Origin: a phage
Assembly: GCA_012401045.1 (NCBI GenBank)
Contig: GCA_012401045.1_4704.1
Reading direction: 5' to 3' (one strand)
DNA: 64,000 nt
A program made the translations under genes and the position numbers. Within the stretch, counting starts at the first letter, position 1. The number at the start of each line of letters is the position of its first letter. The notes beneath the pieces are model-generated. The model was given only the letters and a program-made list of their open reading frames with translations. It made no database searches and was not told the DNA's origin. This document shows positions 40,346 through 51,094 of the stretch, one piece after another.

Positions 40346-41992
40346 TTAGGCTCCACGAGGTCCCGTTAAGTTGCGTAATAGGAACGCAACCGTATCGTAA
40401 CCAATATCGATGTTGAATTTATTTTTACCACTTACCCAGAAAGCTCGCTTCTTGTGCGAGTTGGTAATTTCGTCAATAGCTTCCATGGAATAAAGAACGT
40501 TAACCGAGACCGTATCACCATCAAAGTCCCCACCAAGTCCGGCGAGGTATGGCGCAGGGACAATAGTCGTTTCTACGAACGAAGCATTAGGTAACCAGTC
40601 GGGGTATTCCCATGCGATAAATCGTTCATCCGTTATTGGTTCCCAGTTACTATCCAGTTCGGTTTTCGGTTTTGCGGCGACGGTTGTACGTGCGTAACAG
40701 GTTAACGGGATAACGGATTGCATACCTGATACCGGATAACGTGTTACCATCGCAGCCAGGTTATTCCAGTACTTATATCCGGCAATATAGATAAGCTCGG
40801 TGTAAGTAATGGGGTGAACATCCGCGCCAGGTTTATTCAACATCTCCGGGGGTAATTCACTCATGCCACGGAATAACCGAAACGAATCGTTGTTCACATA
40901 GACGAGGCAAAGATATCGTCCATTGACCATGATAGGCTCGTTACGCACGCCAGGATCGCTTAAGGTGTTCAGTAAACGTTCTATTCCGTCCCATGTTGTA
41001 AAGTCATCGATGGTGTCTGGATCAAGCGTGACGCGCTCACGTTCCATCGTTTCGGTATCAGTAAGTTCAACTTCTGTAACATCACGGACAAATATTTCCT
41101 GCAAAATACCGGTACGTAACGCATGTTGCGTTACTGGGAGAGCGGCTTTACTCATCTGGTATAACCCTAACTGAACCGCGGTACAGGAAGGCTGGTTAGG
41201 CGACCCTAATACCTCCGTTGTGGGGTTAATTGCCGAAATAACGTTACGGGTTGAGTTCCAAACGCGACGTGAACCAAACTTACCTTGGAAGATCCCTTTC
41301 TTACCCTGGAACATATCCAACAGTAAAGCGTAGATATCGTTGAATGTTCTCTGTAAGCTCCAGCGCTGGCCGTCGTAAACGGGATCGGAATAATCTTTTA
41401 ATCCATCAGGGACGGTGTTAGAAATTGCAAGGAAACGACGATACAACTCCGTGATTTCTTGCTCGCTTTCATACCCACCTTCTTTTACTTCTATTTCACG
41501 TAAGCCTGCAGGCAATACCAGTAAGTGACGGGTCATCGCTTTGAACATGTTCTCTTCGACAACTTTAATTCGTAGCTCTCGTTGAGCTGAACCCGTTGAA
41601 ACGAACTTGATATCCGCGACGTGTTGTGCAAAGAACCCGTATCCTGTTTGTCCTGTTAATGCATCAGACGCAACGAAGTCGCGTTGTTCGGGATCCCACC
41701 GAGCGTACGCCTTCCCCGACATGATATCGCCATAGAGGTGTTTTAATCGAATGAGACGGTCGTAAATGACAGGATGCAGGATTTCAACCTTGCATTCAAT
41801 CACCGCAAATCGACGGTCTCGATCTTCACTACCCGCACTACCAAAGATGGTGTAAGAATAGAAACCATCATCGTGGAAATTACCGGTGCTTGGGTCACGA
41901 ATGCTCATGCTCGTGATCTTGGGGAGAAAACGTAACTGCTGTTTATCGAGGTGTAAAATACTAATATTAAACGGCTCTCTGACTTTAGCCAT
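40346..41992 (-). CDS. Multisubunit RNA polymerase beta-prime N-terminal-half homolog (about 548 aa)
   Basis: C-terminal GGDFDGDTVSVNV (beta-prime NADFDGD catalytic motif), GKKGIFQGKFGSRRVWNSTRNVISAINP (cf. LLGKRVDYSGRSVIVVGP), RRFAVIECKVEILHPVIY; start ATG 41992 with SD AAGAGGAG. Confidence 0.8.
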   Translation of the reverse strand: MAKVREPFNISILHLDKQQLRFLPKITSMSIRDPSTGNFHDDGFYSYTIFGSAGSEDRDRRFAVIECKVEILHPVIYDRLIRLKHLYGDIMSGKAYARWDPEQRDFVASDALTGQTGYGFFAQHVADIKFVSTGSAQRELRIKVVEENMFKAMTRHLLVLPAGLREIEVKEGGYESEQEITELYRRFLAISNTVPDGLKDYSDPVYDGQRWSLQRTFNDIYALLLDMFQGKKGIFQGKFGSRRVWNSTRNVISAINPTTEVLGSPNQPSCTAVQLGLYQMSKAALPVTQHALRTGILQEIFVRDVTEVELTDTETMERERVTLDPDTIDDFTTWDGIERLLNTLSDPGVRNEPIMVNGRYLCLVYVNNDSFRLFRGMSELPPEMLNKPGADVHPITYTELIYIAGYKYWNNLAAMVTRYPVSGMQSVIPLTCYARTTVAAKPKTELDSNWEPITDERFIAWEYPDWLPNASFVETTIVPAPYLAGLGGDFDGDTVSVNVLYSMEAIDEITNSHKKRAFWVSGKNKFNIDIGYDTVAFLLRNLTGPRGA

Positions 41993-42237
41993 GGAGACAC
42001 TCCTCTTTACCACCACCGGCTGCGGCGGTATCATCTGAACACACGAGAGACGTAATGGGTGATGGCGTCACCCATCGCTTCCTTGCTTGAGGCGAGGAAG
42101 TTATTAGGTTACGTACCTGCCTGATTTTATCAGGTGGGCGATGTGTGAAGTTACGCTTCAACATTATCAATGCCGAAGGTAAACTTCGTGCATCACGTTC
42201 CAACGTAACATGGGAACGTATCGAACTGGAGGTATAC

Positions 42238-45200
42238 ATGGTAGATAAAACCCGTGTTGAGGGTGATGATAATTGGGACAACTGGGATGAAGACTTCTCC
42301 CTGGATCTCGATTTTAACGAACCCAAAGACGATCGTAAACCGATAACACGCTTTGCGATAGGAGCGGTTAAAGGTGCTGCTGAGGATCTTACTTCCTACG
42401 AAAGAATGAAGGAGATCGCCAGAAACGCATTGCCTAAGGGCTACAGCGACGGTATGGATCTTATTGATTCCGCCGTCGGATCCACGAAGGAACTATACAA
42501 TGAAGCCGTTCGTGACGTTCTTCCTAAGGTCCAAAGCTCAAAACGGTTAGCCGCACAACTGACCAAGAAATACCGTGCGAGCATGCCCGATTTCTCGAAG
42601 AAAATTCTTGAGCAATGGGAGCGAGAAGCCAAGGAAGAAGACGAACGTAAACAAGCTGAAGAAACCCTTCGTCAACGCATGGCGAGCGCGGGGGACGATG
42701 AGATCGCCCGCAAGGTTGCCGAGGCATTAGGCGAATCAGCAAACCAAAGCGCGGATCAGTTCGCTGAACAGCAAGCGAAAGAGAGTATCCGTGACGATAT
42801 CGCTGACAAACGGTACGCTGTAACCAACAAACAAATGAGTGCGATGCAAGAAGGCGTCGCCAAGATGGTTGGTTTCAACAATGAATTCGCTGCACGCTAC
42901 ATGCGTAAAAGCCTGGAACTGAAATATCGTTCCTTAGCGATTCAACGTGCAAGTTTTGATCAGCATAAAAAGTTAGCCGAAGTCTATATCGGTTTATTAC
43001 AAAACATCCAGAAGAATACGGCTTTACCTGATGCGGCTAAAGCAAAAATGTCGGAAGAATTCCGCCGTAGCGCGTACCAACGTTTCTTTGGTAATGCGTT
43101 AGATGCGATGAGTTCTTTCGAGAACCGTTTCTTTGCCGATGTTAAGAAAAACCTTGCCACCAACGCATTAGGTGCTTTAAAAGGCGTCGTGTCTGGCGCA
43201 AACGATGCGTTATACGGTTTAAACGAAGCACGTGACTCGATATCCATGATGGATGGGATGGGGTCAGATGGCGATATTAAGGAAATGCAAGGAAAGATGT
43301 TGGGTCAGTTCATTGGCTCAACTGTCGCACCATGGATGGCTAATAAAGGCAGGATGGCGTTACGCGATTTAGCAAAACGTCACCCCAATGCTAAATTCGC
43401 TAGCGCGTTAAAAGCCGTGGATCAAGGTGGTGAGGCTGCCGCTTACACAACGCGTAATCTCGGTAAACTGCTCCAGGAAGATATTCGTAAGAACGAATTC
43501 AATCTTAGCGATCCGTTTTACAAGCAATTGTTACGCGGTGCAGGGCGTTGGGCGTTCAACATGGACAGCGGACGTAACTTCCGCGTGATGAACGACACCG
43601 CTGAAACACTGGCAGAGCAAACATCTTTCGACGGTTTAACCTACCGCAGCATCAACGAGGTTATTCCAGGCTTTCTTGCACGCATTCTGAAAAGCAGTGA
43701 AGGCATCCGCACCGGAAACAGCGATCCTGACTACGAGGTCTATGACGGCATCAGCGGGCAATTCGTGTCTCAGCGCACGCGTGAGCAAAGCGTCAACGAC
43801 ACGCTGTTTAACAAACGTTCATTTGGTTATTACGCCAGCCGTTTCAACGAGGTTATCTCGGTCATCGATCCCGATAAGCAATTATCGGAAAAAGCCAGGA
43901 AGGCACTGGCTAAACAGTTGGCACGAGATAGCGACGCGAACATCGCATTCGACCCGGCTCGTTTTACGGATGAAAGCAACTTCGATCGTAGTATCGACCG
44001 TGACGCTATTAAGGAACTTTCCACGTACTTTCGTGACCGTTACGGTATTCGTGACGATATCAACGATAAGGGGGAACGTCATCAGGTCATTGGAAACCGC
44101 GGGCAATATTACACGGAACGTAACCGAGCCGATCTTCGTTACGGTAATCTGAAATCTTTACAACCGGATATCCAGCGTAACCTTAACCTGCTGAAACGTA
44201 CTGGTGACGTCCAATATCTGGAACGGATCGGGATTGTAACGAGAAATAGCGACGGAAGTTACTCGGTTAATCACGATAGGTATTTCTCTGAAATCGATCG
44301 GTACATCGACCGGCCGGAGTACGCTGACCGCGGCGATGTTAATACGCGATTAACCGCTCAGGAAACAAGAGCGCTGGCGCTGGGTTATCGTGACGCAAAA
44401 CCATCAGCTGGTGACGTCCAAAATGTCGGCCTGCCGAACATCGGTCGTAAGGCTGCTGGAACAGTAACCGTTGATGAAAACATCGGCTACGATAAATGGT
44501 GGAACGACACAGGTGTTATCACCACATCGCTTGAAGAACAGAATCGAGCGTGGCAAGAGCTTTATCTCGAGGCGTTGTCCGAAGCATCCGAACAACGTGT
44601 TGAAATGCTTGCGCTGCTGAAAGCCATTTCTGAGAAAGACTGGTCTAATAACGTTTCGCTGGATGGTGAAGATGTACCTGAAGGTACAGCACCCATTTCA
44701 TTTATCGATCGTGCCAAACAAAAACTCGGCGGACGCAACCTGTTTAAAGGCGGCCGCAATCTCCTCTGGAAAGGAATTAAAAATACCGCACGTTTAGGTG
44801 TTAAAGGCGCACGCTGGGGTGCAGAACGCACGTTGGGTAGTTTGGTAAATTCTGGCCGACGCATTATCAATTTCAACCGCTTCGTGTTCGGCGCATTATC
44901 CAAGGTTGATCAGGTTCCGTTTGACATTTACGTTAAAGGGGAATCCCAACCACGCATATTGGTTGCTAAACTTCGTCAGGGGTTATACTTCGATGAAGCG
45001 ACAGGAAAAGCCGTAAAACGGATGAAGGATATCAAAGGCCCACTCGTTGATGCGGATGGAAACATCGTAATCAGCAACGAGGATATCGAGAAAGGGTTGG
45101 TCACTCGCGCTGGTCGTGCCTTTGAGAATTCAGGACTTAAAGCATGGGCACGTGAAGGTCTTAATGGAATAACGACGGCATTAAGTCTCCCACGGATGTT

Positions 45201-48200
45201 AAAACGCGGTGCGGTTGAGATCTACAAACAGCTTGACAAAACACCCGACGTTTACGTCAAGGGAGAATCAACGCCTCGTCTGTTGTCCATGGTGTTAGCA
45301 GCGGGTGGGTATTTCCGTCGCTCGGATGGACAAGTCATCAAAAATCTTGAAGACATCGATGGTGATGTTGTTGATGCACAAGGTAACGTCGTACTTACGC
45401 TTGCCGACATGCAGAAAGGACTTGTCGATAAATACGGTAAAGCGATTCGTCGTTTAAAAGAAAAGCTCATCAACTTCGGTGTAAAAGCTTTTACGTTACC
45501 GTTAACGTTGCTACGTAAGACAAAGGACATCCTTAAAGCCCTTCCAGGTAAAACCGTTAACGGTCTACGGCGGATGGGATTAAATTTCCAATCACCTGAC
45601 GCGTTACTGGTGGGAACAACGTCGAGCATGGTAGATCGCCTCGATGCTATTTACCAGCTTCTTGACCAGCGTATGCCGGGAGGTGATAAGGATTACCGCG
45701 ATTGGAATGGCGATGGTGTTCGAGAAGGATCGTTGGAAGACCTGAAACGTAAGCGTGAAGCCAAGGAAAACGGTAAGGATGACATCGGCAAAGATTCCAA
45801 TAAAGGAGAAGAAAAGGAGAAGAAACGAGGGTTACTCGGAAGCCTTTTCGATATGCTCGGTGATACCGCAATAGGTAAACGTCTCATGGCGAGTCCGCTT
45901 GGAAAAATTCTGGGTGGTCTTGGGGCGGTGTTAAGCGGCGGTGCGTCGTTAACTGGGTTGTTGGGCAAAGGTCTCATTAGAGGAACCGGCGCGCTGGTCA
46001 AGGGAGGACTAAGTGCGGCAGGATGGTTAGGACGTGGTGCGTTAATGGCGGGTGGGGCCGCGTTGAACGCCGTTGGTGGGTTATCGGGATTAGGTGCATT
46101 CCTCATCTCACCTGTTGGGCTTGCTATCGCTGGCGGTGCGTTGGCTGCTTATGCTGGATGGAAGATCTATCAGCATTTCGCCGAGAAGCCTGACCCGATG
46201 CAGAAGCTCCGTCTTATTGCATACGGTGCAAAAGGGGACGATAAAGACTTCAATAAGAAGCTGCTTGCGACAGAAACATACCTCACCGACCATGTGGTTA
46301 TGACCGGGGATACCATCGGATTCGATCCGAAAGCCGACTCGGAAAAGATTCTCGAAATCTGGGAATTGTCTCTGGAAGATTCCGACCGAATGAACGAATG
46401 GAAACGCTGGTATCTGCATCGTTTTATTCCTGTTTTCGCTCGCGCGTACAAACTCTGGAAAGAGCATATGCCGGACGAGAAGAAATACATGGAAATGGAT
46501 AAATATCCGAACGGTGAGAACAAAGTGAAATGGTCGGAAGCGTTTATCTGGCCTTCCGATAGTCCTGATGGTCCGTATTACGTCGAAGCTAACCCGTTGG
46601 GTTCTTCTGGTGCGACGCGTTATATTGCTGGTCAAGACGTCAAAACCTTGATGCTGAAACAACTCGAAGCCATCAAGAAAGAGTACCAGAATCAGATTAA
46701 GCAATACACTCATGATGAGGCTATTGCTGATTGGTCACGGATGTCTGACACACAACGTAAATCCGTTGCGCCTAACGCATTACGTGGTCAGAAAGCGTCA
46801 TTACGTTTTAACGATAAACGTTACAACAGCGCTGGTGCTAAAGGACGACAGAAACTGGATGCAACCGCGGTTATTGAAAGCGTAGACCGCCGTGGTAGGA
46901 AATGGGTTGCCGGTGGATACATCGATGAACTCACCAGTCTTCGTGTTCGTGCGTACGGTATTAAGGTTCCGTTGTTAAGTCAGATAAAAGTGCTGATGGA
47001 ACTTGAAGACGCTGTAGAACCTGGCGTTGTCGCTGAAGGTAAAGGTGTTAAATACGGTGGCGATCTTGTCGCGCTCTACAAGAAATTCGCGACGAAGTTC
47101 GGAAGAGACGTTAACAGCAAGCATGATCAGGATATCTGGTTTGCTTGGATGAACAACCGTTTCCTGCCCGTCTTTTTAACCTATTACCAACAAGTTAGCG
47201 ACATGGGCGGTCAAGGACTTCTGTCCGACGTGGTACAGAACCTGAAAGACAGCCAACGCTGGGAAATCGGTGAAGCACTTGTCGCAACGCAATACCGTGA
47301 TGAGAAAGGTACACTGCAGCCTGTATGGTCCTGGAATAGTTGTGGTTTCTCCGGTACTGAAGCTAACACCACCAGCAGTTCAACAAAGAGCCAACTCGAT
47401 CTGTTAAAAGAATATGCGGATAAAGAGAAGGTTCGTGAGAAGAACGCGGAAGCATCGCAAGAGGATACCGATAAATTATCGAAGATCCAAGAGCTGATGA
47501 TGAAGCAGGCTGGGTACGAGAAGAAAGACGGTGTCTGGCAGAAGAAATCTCGCATTACCGGCGGGATGAGTAACTCCGAAGCGAATTACAACCCCAATAG
47601 GAATAAGGTCGGTGAAAGCAGCTTTACGGCTTCGGCTACTTCCAATGCGGGATTAGGGTCAACCGGCGATCTTACCGGATTGCCTAACATGGGCTTACAG
47701 AAACCTGCAATGGGACCAGGTCCTGAAGCTGGACGTCGTGCGCTTGTTAAATCCGCTGTAAAACGCGGCATTACCGATCCGATGGAAATGGCGATGTTCC
47801 TTGCGAACATCGAACATGAATCGGGGAACTACACTCACGTACGTGAGGGGAACTATAAGACACCAGAGCGTCTTAAACAGGTCTTCCCTTACAAATTCCG
47901 TGATGTGCAGGATGCCGCACAGACGATCAGCATGGGTCCGGAAGTGGTATTCGAACGTGTGTATGGTAATCGTAAAGATCTCGGAAACACACAGAAAGGA
48001 GACGGGGCGAAGTATTTAGGACGTGGCTTCATTCAGGTTACCGGTAAAGCTAACTACGCTCGTCTGTCCAAGACCTTGAATAAGGATCTTGTCAGCGATC
48101 CGACCTACCTGGAAACGCCGGAAGGTGCAGCGGAAGGTAGTGTCGCATGGTGGCTCAACCGAGGTAACGTATTACGCGATCCCGCAAAACGGGGTGACGT

Positions 48201-48903
48201 ACGCCAAGTTCGTTATCTAGTTAACGGTGGCTATAACGGATTACGTGATGTTGAACAACGTTCTGCATATTGGATTCAGGCAGCTAAGAATGGCACCCTG
48301 AAGAAAATGATGGACGAGTTATCAGGGTCAACATCAGACGATCAAGCTGAAGGACCGACCACTGCCGAACAGGTGAAGAACGAAGCAGCACAAGAGGCAA
48401 ACGGAACACCTGCTGTAAGCAACGATCCGCAAGCCCCAGTATCTTCTACCACCCCTGAAGCTAAACCGTCTGCGGCTGCCGGGACGGCCCCAGCACCTGG
48501 GGAAGCATCACCAACGCCTGGAAGTTTCGAAACAGCAAAAGCCGCGGCAGGACAACCGACATCAACTCCAGCACCTAGCGATTTGCCGTCAAACCCAGGC
48601 GCAAATCGAGGGATATCGGTTCCGAATACACCTGCACAGGTTGCGCAGTCTGCGACACAAACGTCGGCTGCAAGTGAGAACTTCTACGGTAGCGCAGGTG
48701 AAATTCTCCGACAGCAGCTGACCACACAGCAGAACATCGAGAAGAACACCGGTAGAACGAATGAACTTATTTCGGAATTAATCCAAGCCGTTAAGGGTTC
48801 TTCTATCGGTAAGGGTTCTGCAAGTCCTTCTCAACAACAGACGATGTCACTACCTAATCGTCCGCAAGGAATCTCTCCAACACGGACAAGGTACGCACAG
48901 TAG
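42238..48903 (+). CDS. Giant virion-associated protein (about 2221 aa) with C-terminal-region GH19/lysozyme-like peptidoglycan hydrolase domain
   Basis: [10 protein letters not shown] ... [32 protein letters not shown] motif (GH19-type); Gly-zipper hydrophobic segment; internal ~109-aa tandem repeat; Pro/Ala/Ser/Thr-rich tail; start ATG 42238 with SD GGAGGT. Confidence 0.8.
   Translation: [2221 protein letters not shown]
44917..45570 (+). repeat. Internal tandem duplication (2 x about 109 codons) inside the giant gene
   Basis: [19 protein letters not shown]...[18 protein letters not shown] versus [18 protein letters not shown]...[18 protein letters not shown]. Confidence 0.6.
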
Positions 48904-48914
48904 TCATTAGTTAA

Positions 48915-48933
48915 GGGCGGGAATCTCCCGCCC
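48915..48933 (+). terminator. Hairpin gggcggga-atc-tcccgccc after the giant gene
   Basis: 8-bp GC stem followed by TCTTCTT, then SD of next gene. Confidence 0.5.
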
Positions 48934-48952
48934 TCTTCTTGAGGAATGTTAC

Positions 48953-51094
48953 ATGGGTATTCTTGTTCAAAACGCCCTAATCACCAAACAAGCGTTTTTA
49001 TTACCAGGCGATAGCAGCACTCTGAGCGCCGACATGATTAAAGCGAGACATACACCGTATTCCTACGATAACGTCGATGATACCACCTTAGGTGGGAACT
49101 GGGTGCTTAACCCGCCGCCGCAATATACAAAATTTGCCGACATCAAAGAACGCCGACGTGCGGTTATGCCGGGATCAACGGGCATGGGTCGAGGCTATAG
49201 TGAAAGCATTAACAGCTTTAAAGAGGTCGTTACATTACGATTCGGTAAACCTCGCTTTACAGGCGCAAGTATCTTCTTTACTGATTTCTACGATGCGGAT
49301 GTTGCCGTAACGGTTAAAACCGGTCGCGATCCCGGTATTCTTTATTACGCAGCCAAAGCGTATACCACCGTTCTTTCTTACCTCACACCTCTACCCTACT
49401 TGTATATGGTTGGACGTATCGGTCGATATTTCCTGGGTAAGCCTACCAGTCAATATTACTATCAAGTACCAACCATGCACGTGTATTGGGCGTCTTTCCA
49501 AACACTGGTAAACCAAACAGCGATAAACATGGGTCTTATCGCCGGTGCCGGTAAAGATAAAGGCTATGTGGAAGAAGGGGGTACCGTACTCCACCAATAT
49601 TCAATCGGTGGTCAGAACGTTGAAGAATTCATCAACTACGCCTCTAAGACGCTACCGGGGATTTATAAGAAAGGTGGTGGGATCGATATCTACCAGATCG
49701 CAACACGACGTCAGCGCATACAGAACGCATGGGTACGTCGTATTCAATCCATGATGGAAAACGATTACTCGTCTTACGAGGAGTTCTGGAACGATCTTGA
49801 TAAACGACTTGATAGCGGAGCATTTCCATCGGATGTAACCGGCCGTACGTTAACGCAGTATCTCGCCGACACGCAGAAGTCTGCTGTTTACAGTGCGACA
49901 GCTGGTGATAATAAACAAACGATGGACGACCTTTTATTCGGAAGGGCCTCATACACCAACAAGGACGCTGATGCCAACTTCAATGTCTCTGCAGTCACCT
50001 CCGACGGCGGTACGTCAACACAAAGTCAGGGTACAACAGCCAATGTCGGTAATTCGACATCAGGGACAACGCAAGCTTCAACAGCAGCATCGACGGCTGG
50101 AGGTGCGAACGTACAGAGCAAAGGAATCGGGCAAACGAACGCAGCCGAAGAAGCTACATTTCTTGATCTGATGGATGCTGAACTGGCTGACGGTGCCCAG
50201 TTTATCAGTTTTCGAGTCGATTCTGTCACCAGTGTAACCGAAACGTTTTCAAACAGCGCTTCAGAAAGTTCTATTGCACAGACGATGAATAGCCGTGCAC
50301 AAGCGAACATCGAACGTCGTTTCACCCTTTCCGGTGGTAATACAGGTTGGGCTGTACTAGACGAAGCAATCAAAGCCGGTTCCGATCTCGTCAACGGTGC
50401 TATTTCCGGGATGGGTCTGGATGGTATTTTTGGGGCCTTCATGGGTTCCGGCTTCGCTGACATTCCGAAATTCTATTCTGGATCGTCAGTAAGTCTACCG
50501 CGCGCCGATCTGACGATGGAATTGCGTTCCTGGAGTGGGGATCGTTGGTCGATCTTTACGAACCTCATGGTGCCTCTTTTAGCTATCCTTGCAGGTGGTT
50601 TACCTCAGGCTACCGGTAAATCGTCCTACGGGATGCCGTTCATGTGTGAATGTTATATCCCTGGTAAAGTCCAGATTAAAATGGGTCTTATCGACAACAT
50701 CACTGTGACGCGTCACGTTGGAAACGTGCCATCAACACGTGAGCGGTTACCGTTGGGTATCGATGTCAGCTTCAGCGTTTATGACCTGTCGTCCATCGTC
50801 GCCATGCCGATCACAACGACGGCCGCATCGATCGCAAAATTGGATCCTCGTGGCTTCTTAAGTGATCTTCTTGCTGACGATACCCCACTCAACAACTATC
50901 TTGCTGTATTATCAGCATTGACGCTTACGGAACAAGTTTACATGATTCCTGATTTAAGTCGTCGCATGCATAAAACCATGGCTGATATCGATAGTTTCTG
51001 GAGCAAAGGTAATTTTGCTAGCTGGTTGTCTGACACCATGCCTGGCAGGATAGCATCAGGGCTGTTATGGAAACGTACAGAACGTCCGTTCTGA
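48953..51094 (+). CDS. Putative virion structural protein (713 aa) with Ser/Thr/Gly-rich low-complexity region
   Basis: SD GAGGAA; immediately downstream of giant virion protein. Confidence 0.7.
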   Translation: MGILVQNALITKQAFLLPGDSSTLSADMIKARHTPYSYDNVDDTTLGGNWVLNPPPQYTKFADIKERRRAVMPGSTGMGRGYSESINSFKEVVTLRFGKPRFTGASIFFTDFYDADVAVTVKTGRDPGILYYAAKAYTTVLSYLTPLPYLYMVGRIGRYFLGKPTSQYYYQVPTMHVYWASFQTLVNQTAINMGLIAGAGKDKGYVEEGGTVLHQYSIGGQNVEEFINYASKTLPGIYKKGGGIDIYQIATRRQRIQNAWVRRIQSMMENDYSSYEEFWNDLDKRLDSGAFPSDVTGRTLTQYLADTQKSAVYSATAGDNKQTMDDLLFGRASYTNKDADANFNVSAVTSDGGTSTQSQGTTANVGNSTSGTTQASTAASTAGGANVQSKGIGQTNAAEEATFLDLMDAELADGAQFISFRVDSVTSVTETFSNSASESSIAQTMNSRAQANIERRFTLSGGNTGWAVLDEAIKAGSDLVNGAISGMGLDGIFGAFMGSGFADIPKFYSGSSVSLPRADLTMELRSWSGDRWSIFTNLMVPLLAILAGGLPQATGKSSYGMPFMCECYIPGKVQIKMGLIDNITVTRHVGNVPSTRERLPLGIDVSFSVYDLSSIVAMPITTTAASIAKLDPRGFLSDLLADDTPLNNYLAVLSALTLTEQVYMIPDLSRRMHKTMADIDSFWSKGNFASWLSDTMPGRIASGLLWKRTERPF

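Follow-up and report, generated by a model that had tools for sequence, protein, structure and literature searches.

In siphophages such as T5, TM4 and phiIPLA35, the tape-measure protein (~1000–1200 amino acids, aa) also bears a lysin, and in those of the T5 pb2 type one protein combines a ruler, a muralytic domain and a hydrophobic, fusogenic segment for entry into the host envelope. A protein of about twice that length, gp181 (2237 aa), is known from phiKZ, where its SLT domain is muralytic and where, in an older view, it was a needle-like, putatively trimeric puncturing device (review PMC5380687). The phiKZ gene, orf181, takes no transposon insertions in its 6714 bp, is essential and has been called a "likely" tape measure (PMC12676376), while database records associate gp181 with the tail. 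Its counterpart in phage SPN3US, gp239 (2372 aa), is absent from or depleted in two tailless mutants and has been named the tail tape measure. Described here is the member of this family that is encoded at positions 42,238 to 48,903 of a 64,000-nucleotide stretch of phage DNA, referred to as the window (GenBank assembly GCA_012401045.1, contig GCA_012401045.1_4704.1). Judged by sequence and gene position it is the orthologue of phiKZ gp181 and SPN3US gp239, and it is likely to be a tape-measure-like protein of the tail-tube lumen that exits at infection, cuts peptidoglycan and enters the inner membrane.

The protein is not new, as it is a near-identical copy of an annotated gene product of Escherichia phage vB_EcoM_Goslar (Goslar_00232/HOV27_gp204, YP_009820915.1) and as work on the phiKZ member of its family goes back to 2008. 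Goslar, which infects Escherichia coli, is a phiKZ-type jumbo phage that forms a nucleus. The two genes are 96.7% identical in nucleotides and the proteins differ by 32 substitutions in 2221 aligned residues without any insertion or deletion (98.6% identity), and the encoded protein thus belongs to a Goslar-like chimallivirus. The two phages are not the same, although they are ~96% identical in nucleotides and share the gene neighborhood. The gene and its ribosome binding site are as follows.

42,228–42,232, + strand: Shine-Dalgarno sequence GGAGG, 5 bases ahead of the ATG at 42,238, read from the sequence
42,238–48,903, + strand: coding sequence of the giant protein, 2221 aa plus stop codon in an uninterrupted frame, with an alternative GTG start at 42,145

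In an alignment of 14 sequences, Met1 (ATG 42,238) stands opposite the first Met of all 13 homologues and, because this agrees with the position of GGAGG, 2221 aa is a better gene model than that opened by the GTG. Frame, GGAGG and homologues therefore uphold the open reading frame of 2221 codons from which an earlier note on this DNA had started. Both GenBank and RefSeq open the Goslar gene at the upstream GTG, which gives 2252 aa. Going by the sequence, the start given there probably lies 31 codons too far upstream.

Orthology is based on similarity over most of the protein and on gene order. A profile search gave a match to PHROG 3201 over aa 11–1170 (E 9.5e-292), and phiKZ gp181 is 24–25% identical over aa 35–1730 (BLASTP, E 5e-45 and 2e-36), in a pairwise alignment that spans the helical N-terminus, a pair of tandem repeats, a Gly-rich segment and two paired mid domains. 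These parts follow one another in the same order in both proteins, as do a lysin slot and a C-terminal module, and the main difference, apart from an overall identity of only ~24%, is that gp181 has an SLT lytic transglycosylase (PF01464, aa 1885–1978) where the window protein has a GH19 domain. SPN3US gp239 likewise differs in its length of 2372 aa and its SLT-type domain and shares the C-terminal module, with BLAST-detectable similarity limited to aa 29–551. By tblastn, the same giant gene was found in 281 phage records, nearly all of them from genomes >200 kb, which include phiKZ-like phages of Pseudomonas, Erwinia, Salmonella, Serratia, Vibrio, Aeromonas and Ralstonia. In Goslar, phiKZ and SPN3US alike, the giant gene lies between divergently transcribed genes of the virion RNA polymerase (vRNAP) and the gene for gp182/gp203, which in the window are represented by the following neighbors.

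48,953–51,094, + strand: next gene downstream (713 aa), whose orthologues are gp203 of Goslar and gp182 of phiKZ, a ring located between hub and tail tube (annotation, synteny, published cryo-EM)
40,346–42,034, − strand: divergent upstream gene, 562 aa, beta-type subunit of the vRNAP, a synteny marker outside the tail protein (annotation, synteny)

Sequence and position thus agree with the likeness to the giant virion lysin of phiKZ that the earlier note had drawn. The gap between the giant gene and the tube-initiator gene is 49 nucleotides (48,904–48,952) and has no terminator-like site inside it, so the two genes are probably co-transcribed; scans for sigma-70 promoters and intrinsic terminators gave nothing above background.

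The domain content of the protein was derived from alignments, profile searches and AlphaFold2 models of aa 1–1200 and aa 1196–1830, for which the input alignments of 14 sequences were shallow. Model confidence is given as the predicted local distance difference test score (pLDDT).

42,340–43,557, + strand: aa 35–440, long predicted helices, a tape-measure-like rod region (AlphaFold2, 87% helix, pLDDT <50–65)
43,657–44,322, + strand: aa 474–695, best-conserved motif of the family (..IRTG) and a confidently folded alpha/beta domain (alignment, AlphaFold2)
44,902–45,543, + strand: aa 889–1102, tandem duplication of an alpha/beta module of ~105 aa (self-BLAST, AlphaFold2 pLDDT 70–80)
45,823–46,167, + strand: aa 1196–1310, Gly/Ala-rich hydrophobic segment, preceded by a Lys/Glu-rich linker and ending in GWKIYQ (composition, hydropathy)
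46,183–47,442, + strand: aa 1316–1735, two copies of a family-specific, mainly helical domain (internal repeat, AlphaFold2)
47,740–48,300, + strand: aa 1835–2021, GH19 domain of the endolysin subfamily, predicted N-acetylmuramidase (profiles, solved structures)
48,340–48,687, + strand: aa ~2035–2150, Pro/Ala/Ser/Thr-rich (PAST), probably disordered linker (composition)
48,688–48,900, + strand: aa 2151–2221, conserved C-terminal module, a helix LxxQLxxQ.. and a terminal P-[VI]-x-x-[RK] (alignment)

The lysin is the best-defined part. Its domain matches the endolysin family PHROG 181 (E 5.5e-53), and its nearest solved relatives are the endolysins 9EOI, 7R6S, 9MS6/7 and 4OK7 (E 1e-23 to 3e-19). 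One of these, PaGH19Lys (9EOI), is a muramidase that has no activity on chitin and whose active site consists of H50, E51, E60, Y103, Q127, T129, I187, N188 and R197 (PMC12329726). The corresponding residues here are H1860, E1861, E1870, Y1909, Q1933, T1935, V1995, N1996 and R2008, which means that all nine positions are kept, including the two catalytic glutamates, E1861 and E1870, nine residues apart, and that the single change, Ile to Val at V1995, is conservative. The GH19-type hydrolase that the earlier note had placed at about 47,760–48,200 is therefore real and its active site is intact. The domain search that the note had proposed was positive for PHROG 181 and the solved GH19 endolysins, but the chitinase-centered GH19 model of Pfam, PF00182, scored 18.2 bits, below its cut-off of 25.5. 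From sequence similarity, muramidase is the expected activity of this domain. PaGH19Lys and the SPN1S endolysin (4OK7) have the same catalytic domain with all of the active-site residues, but both are free-standing enzymes of ~200 aa that work from the cell interior during lysis, whereas here the domain is embedded in a giant virion protein.

These results also bear on the names under which the Goslar gene is filed, which are "putative chitinase" in GenBank and "tail fiber protein" in RefSeq, the latter being also the label of PHROG 3201. That the protein is a fiber, a chitinase or an endolysin of the lysis step is hardly to be credited, as the database names are all that speaks for it. The closest solved relative of the GH19 domain is a muramidase without chitinase activity and the Pfam model built on chitinases stays below threshold, so that "chitinase" is a misnomer, and a 245-kDa structural protein of the virion is unlike the endolysin of a lysis cassette. 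The fibers of phiKZ have been assigned to gp131–135 (PMC13250141), and the giant protein, at about six copies, is without fiber-like domains. The annotation should instead read as a tape-measure-like protein of the tail that contains a GH19 muramidase domain.

The GH19 domain occupies a slot whose content varies within the family. In a census that comprised 105 homologues from databases as well as phiKZ gp181, SPN3US gp239 and the window protein, the slot, at ~80–90% of the protein length, holds SLT in 60 sequences and GH19 in 10, and the other domains found in it are PF21277, M23, CHAP, PF18013 and VanY/S74. The carriers of GH19 are scattered over at least four N-terminal lineages, in which their nearest relatives carry SLT or other domains, and this distribution points to repeated replacement of a cassette on a conserved scaffold. 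The family thus clearly illustrates how one giant scaffold can stay constant while the wall-cutting cassette on it (SLT, GH19, M23, CHAP and others) is exchanged. On one side of the slot a Ser/Thr/Lys-rich linker connects it to the paired mid domains, and on the other lies the PAST linker. The earlier note had seen a Pro/Ala/Ser/Thr-rich tail; the composition is right for aa ~2035–2150 but this is not the true tail, as it is followed by a non-PAST module of ~70 aa. This C-terminal module is common to phiKZ gp181, SPN3US gp239 and members with SLT, M23 or CHAP domains, and is a candidate for an anchor in the baseplate hub.

The N-terminal half is built of a helical region and several folded domains. 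The rod region (aa 35–440) aligns with aa 46–440 of phiKZ gp181, and the secondary structure of aa 1–1200 as a whole is 62% helix at low confidence. The long coiled regions named in the earlier note correspond to predicted helix-rich sequence at these values. In the region of the ..IRTG motif, P477, G478, L480, I483, R491, T492 and G493 are invariant in the 14-sequence alignment, and aa ~510–690 form a confident alpha/beta fold (pLDDT 80–92), for which neither a profile match nor, by Foldseek, a fold match in the PDB was found. Further predicted helices separate this domain from the tandem modules, whose two copies (aa 896–999 and 1004–1102) are 39% identical in self-BLAST (E 5e-20) and are both present in phiKZ gp181 too. 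The mid domains, aa 1316–1505 and 1535–1735, are modeled at a pLDDT of 70–95 and their internal repeat is detectable by self-BLAST (aa 1319–1405 with 1563–1651, E 2.5e-4). They are matched in 519 representative proteins, nearly all of 2000–3200 aa and with the domains at the same relative position, and this near-confinement indicates that they are specific to the gp181-type family. Foldseek searches of the PDB with the N-terminal half and the mid region gave no match with E <0.4, and a fold search of BFVD with the mid region returned orthologues only.

Between these two halves lies the Gly/Ala-rich hydrophobic segment, which has 26% Gly compared with 9% in the whole protein and reaches Kyte-Doolittle maxima of 1.6 and 1.91 in a 19-residue window. 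An equivalent segment is present in ~100 of 107 family members. A segment of glycine zippers had been proposed at about 45,870–46,170, and the Gly-rich hydrophobic stretch is indeed found close to it; the zipper periodicity is not, as the motif [GAS]xxxGxxx[GAS] occurs 4 times compared with 6.5 ± 2.3 times in shuffles of aa 1196–1310. On its composition and hydropathy the segment is a candidate for membrane insertion. It might do more than form a transient pore when about six copies are ejected, with the paired mid domains acting on the membrane or periplasmic side, but such a larger role is quite unlikely.

Evidence that the giant protein is in the virion comes from purified Goslar particles. 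Table S4 of a recent preprint enters YP_009820915.1 as "Tail protein", detected through 34 peptides that cover 24.5% of it, and estimates 3.4–8.0 copies (10.64898/2026.04.21.720040). The label-free quantification (LFQ) fraction of this protein, gp204, is 1.3–1.5 times that of gp62 and gp203 in the same table and, since these are known hexamers, about six copies is the simplest reading. Goslar virion peptides map at aa 393, 739, 771, 969 and 2102, the last of them within the PAST linker, showing that both ends of the protein are in the virion. Another reading would make it a capsid-internal ejection protein that is packaged in the head and ejected together with the DNA and the vRNAP. It would then resemble T7 gp16, a protein in which membrane-spanning segments accompany a lytic transglycosylase domain. 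The giant gene adjoins the genes of the head-packaged vRNAP, and a lysin and a hydrophobic segment are combined in it as in T7 gp16. Such a location is nevertheless very unlikely, because head-only particles without tails lack SPN3US gp239, the records of both Goslar and phiKZ carry the label "tail protein", and the gene is divergent from the vRNAP genes and probably co-transcribed with one of the baseplate.

The place of the protein within the tail is constrained by two recent structures. In the phiKZ atlas, gp164 is the spike, gp163.1 the tip, gp101 the hub and gp182 a spacer ring, and the tube has a lumen of 68 Å and 43 rings of 37.73 Å (PMC13250141). In Goslar, the spike is gp13, the cap gp48 and the tube initiator has two layers, gp62 and gp203, the tube itself consisting of 46 layers of 39.2 Å; gp203 is the product of the gene directly downstream of the giant gene, and the authors draw a parallel with gp48/gp54 of T4 (10.64898/2026.04.21.720040). 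With spike, tip, hub and cap thus given to other proteins, it is highly improbable that the giant protein is a needle-like central puncturing device analogous to T4 gp5, even if reviews list gp181 as such (PMC5380687). A spike lysozyme of the T4 gp5 type is a trimer with OB-fold, lysozyme and beta-helix, and the AlphaFold2 models of aa 1–1830 have no run of strands resembling a beta-helix; the C-terminal 390 aa were judged by sequence matches and composition only. The literature accordingly assigns the family a role as a tail-internal tape-measure-like protein and not as a puncturing needle; the terms ejected and envelope-penetrating, used in the earlier note, are inferences.

A tape-measure-like protein in the tube lumen would account for several features. 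The protein has a long predicted helical region, its gene neighbors that of a tube initiator, it is present in few copies and it is not resolved in symmetrized maps. T4 has a comparable gene order, in which genes 48 and 54 come after gene 29, that of the tape measure. Six copies are calculated to fill ~27% of a lumen 68 Å wide and 1800 Å long, so a location there is physically possible. The giant protein is not named in the phiKZ atlas (gp181; PMC13250141) or in the main text of the Goslar preprint (gp204; 10.64898/2026.04.21.720040), and absence from the built models is the outcome expected of a protein in the lumen whose symmetry does not match that of the tube.

A number of observations weigh against this reading. 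No density was assigned to the giant protein in either the phiKZ or the Goslar cryo-EM structure, which makes the lumen a putative location. As a helix at 1.5 Å per residue, 2221 aa would extend over 3330 Å compared with 1801 Å for the Goslar tube, which is ~1.85 times the length required, and phiKZ has a slightly longer protein (3355 Å as a helix) yet a shorter tube of 1622 Å. With the length of the whole protein out of proportion to the tube, at most a sub-region can be the ruler. The N-terminal 1195 aa are close to what the Goslar tube requires (1201 aa), but the corresponding ~1290 aa of phiKZ exceed the 1082 needed, and the agreement in Goslar is therefore taken as a coincidence. In Pfam and NCBIfam scans of the giant protein there was no tape-measure family, the only named domain being the sub-threshold GH19, and the genes upstream are the divergent vRNAP genes and not a chaperone pair of the G/GT type. 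The helical content of the N-terminal half is limited and of low confidence, as given above, and in the hydrophobic segment, which is weaker in phiKZ gp181, the zipper spacing is not enriched.

Some of the same evidence would fit a tail protein that is not a ruler, such as a lysin-carrying plug or a baseplate-internal protein in a tail whose length is set in another way. This is unlikely. In its favor, the lengths of protein and tube do not scale between Goslar and phiKZ, tape-measure profiles were not matched in Pfam or NCBIfam, much of the protein is modeled as folded domains instead of a rod, and large parts of the peripheral baseplate are unmodeled in both phages. On the other hand, the structural papers on phiKZ and Goslar name no other candidate for the tape measure, the gene adjoins that of the tube initiator and encodes ~400 aa of near-continuous helix, and the authors of the SPN3US and phiKZ studies treat the protein as a tape measure.

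Tape-measure-like function in the lumen is therefore preferred, and the following sequence of events can be envisaged. About six copies would lie in the tube lumen, anchored by the C-terminal module at the tube-initiator/hub end, while their helical N-terminal half would extend up the tube in the manner of a tape measure. Once the sheath has contracted and the spike is gone, the protein would leave with its C-terminus ahead, and the GH19 domain, on its disordered PAST tether of ~115 residues, could then cut the MurNAc-GlcNAc bonds of peptidoglycan locally. The Gly/Ala-rich hydrophobic segment would subsequently enter the inner membrane and may help to form a conduit for DNA and proteins. This is the same working model as for the lysin-bearing tape measures of T5 (pb2), TM4 and phiIPLA35, to which no sequence or profile relationship was detected (Pfam, NCBIfam scans), but the setting differs, as the phage has a contractile tail and a protein of almost twice the length that the tube requires. 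The Goslar preprint lists cell penetration and the shaping of the EPI vesicle bilayer as open questions (10.64898/2026.04.21.720040), and gp181 is not mentioned in a preprint on EPI vesicles. For the crossing of the envelope by jumbo phages that form a nucleus, a step that the virion structures have left open, the giant-protein family is an obvious candidate.

Two observations concern the distribution of the family in databases. A protein cluster at 90% identity (P0001, 98% identical to the window protein) has 615 members, all of them from Logan assemblies of publicly deposited runs, which suggests that Goslar-like phages are frequent in publicly available reads. In addition, four full-length homologues (P0019, P0048, P0049 and P0058) carry bacterial names (Caballeronia, Paraburkholderia) and lie on contigs of 140–490 kb, and one of these is labeled "cell pole-organizing protein PopZ". 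These names are probably misleading, the contigs being those of jumbo phages or of carried phages in bacterial assemblies.

The upstream vRNAP gene differs from that of Goslar in one respect. Neither Rfam nor tRNA scans gave a hit anywhere in the window, no Rfam family, group I introns included, reaching threshold. The window is without a block of 2,045 bp (Goslar 211,754–213,798) that in Goslar holds an annotated group I intron and the coding sequence Goslar_00230, described as phiKZ ORF179-like; the junction is at window positions 40,525/40,527, within the beta-type gene. Since this gene reads through in the window as 562 aa, it is an intron-less allele, and as such may bear on the competition between introns and homing endonucleases among related jumbo phages.

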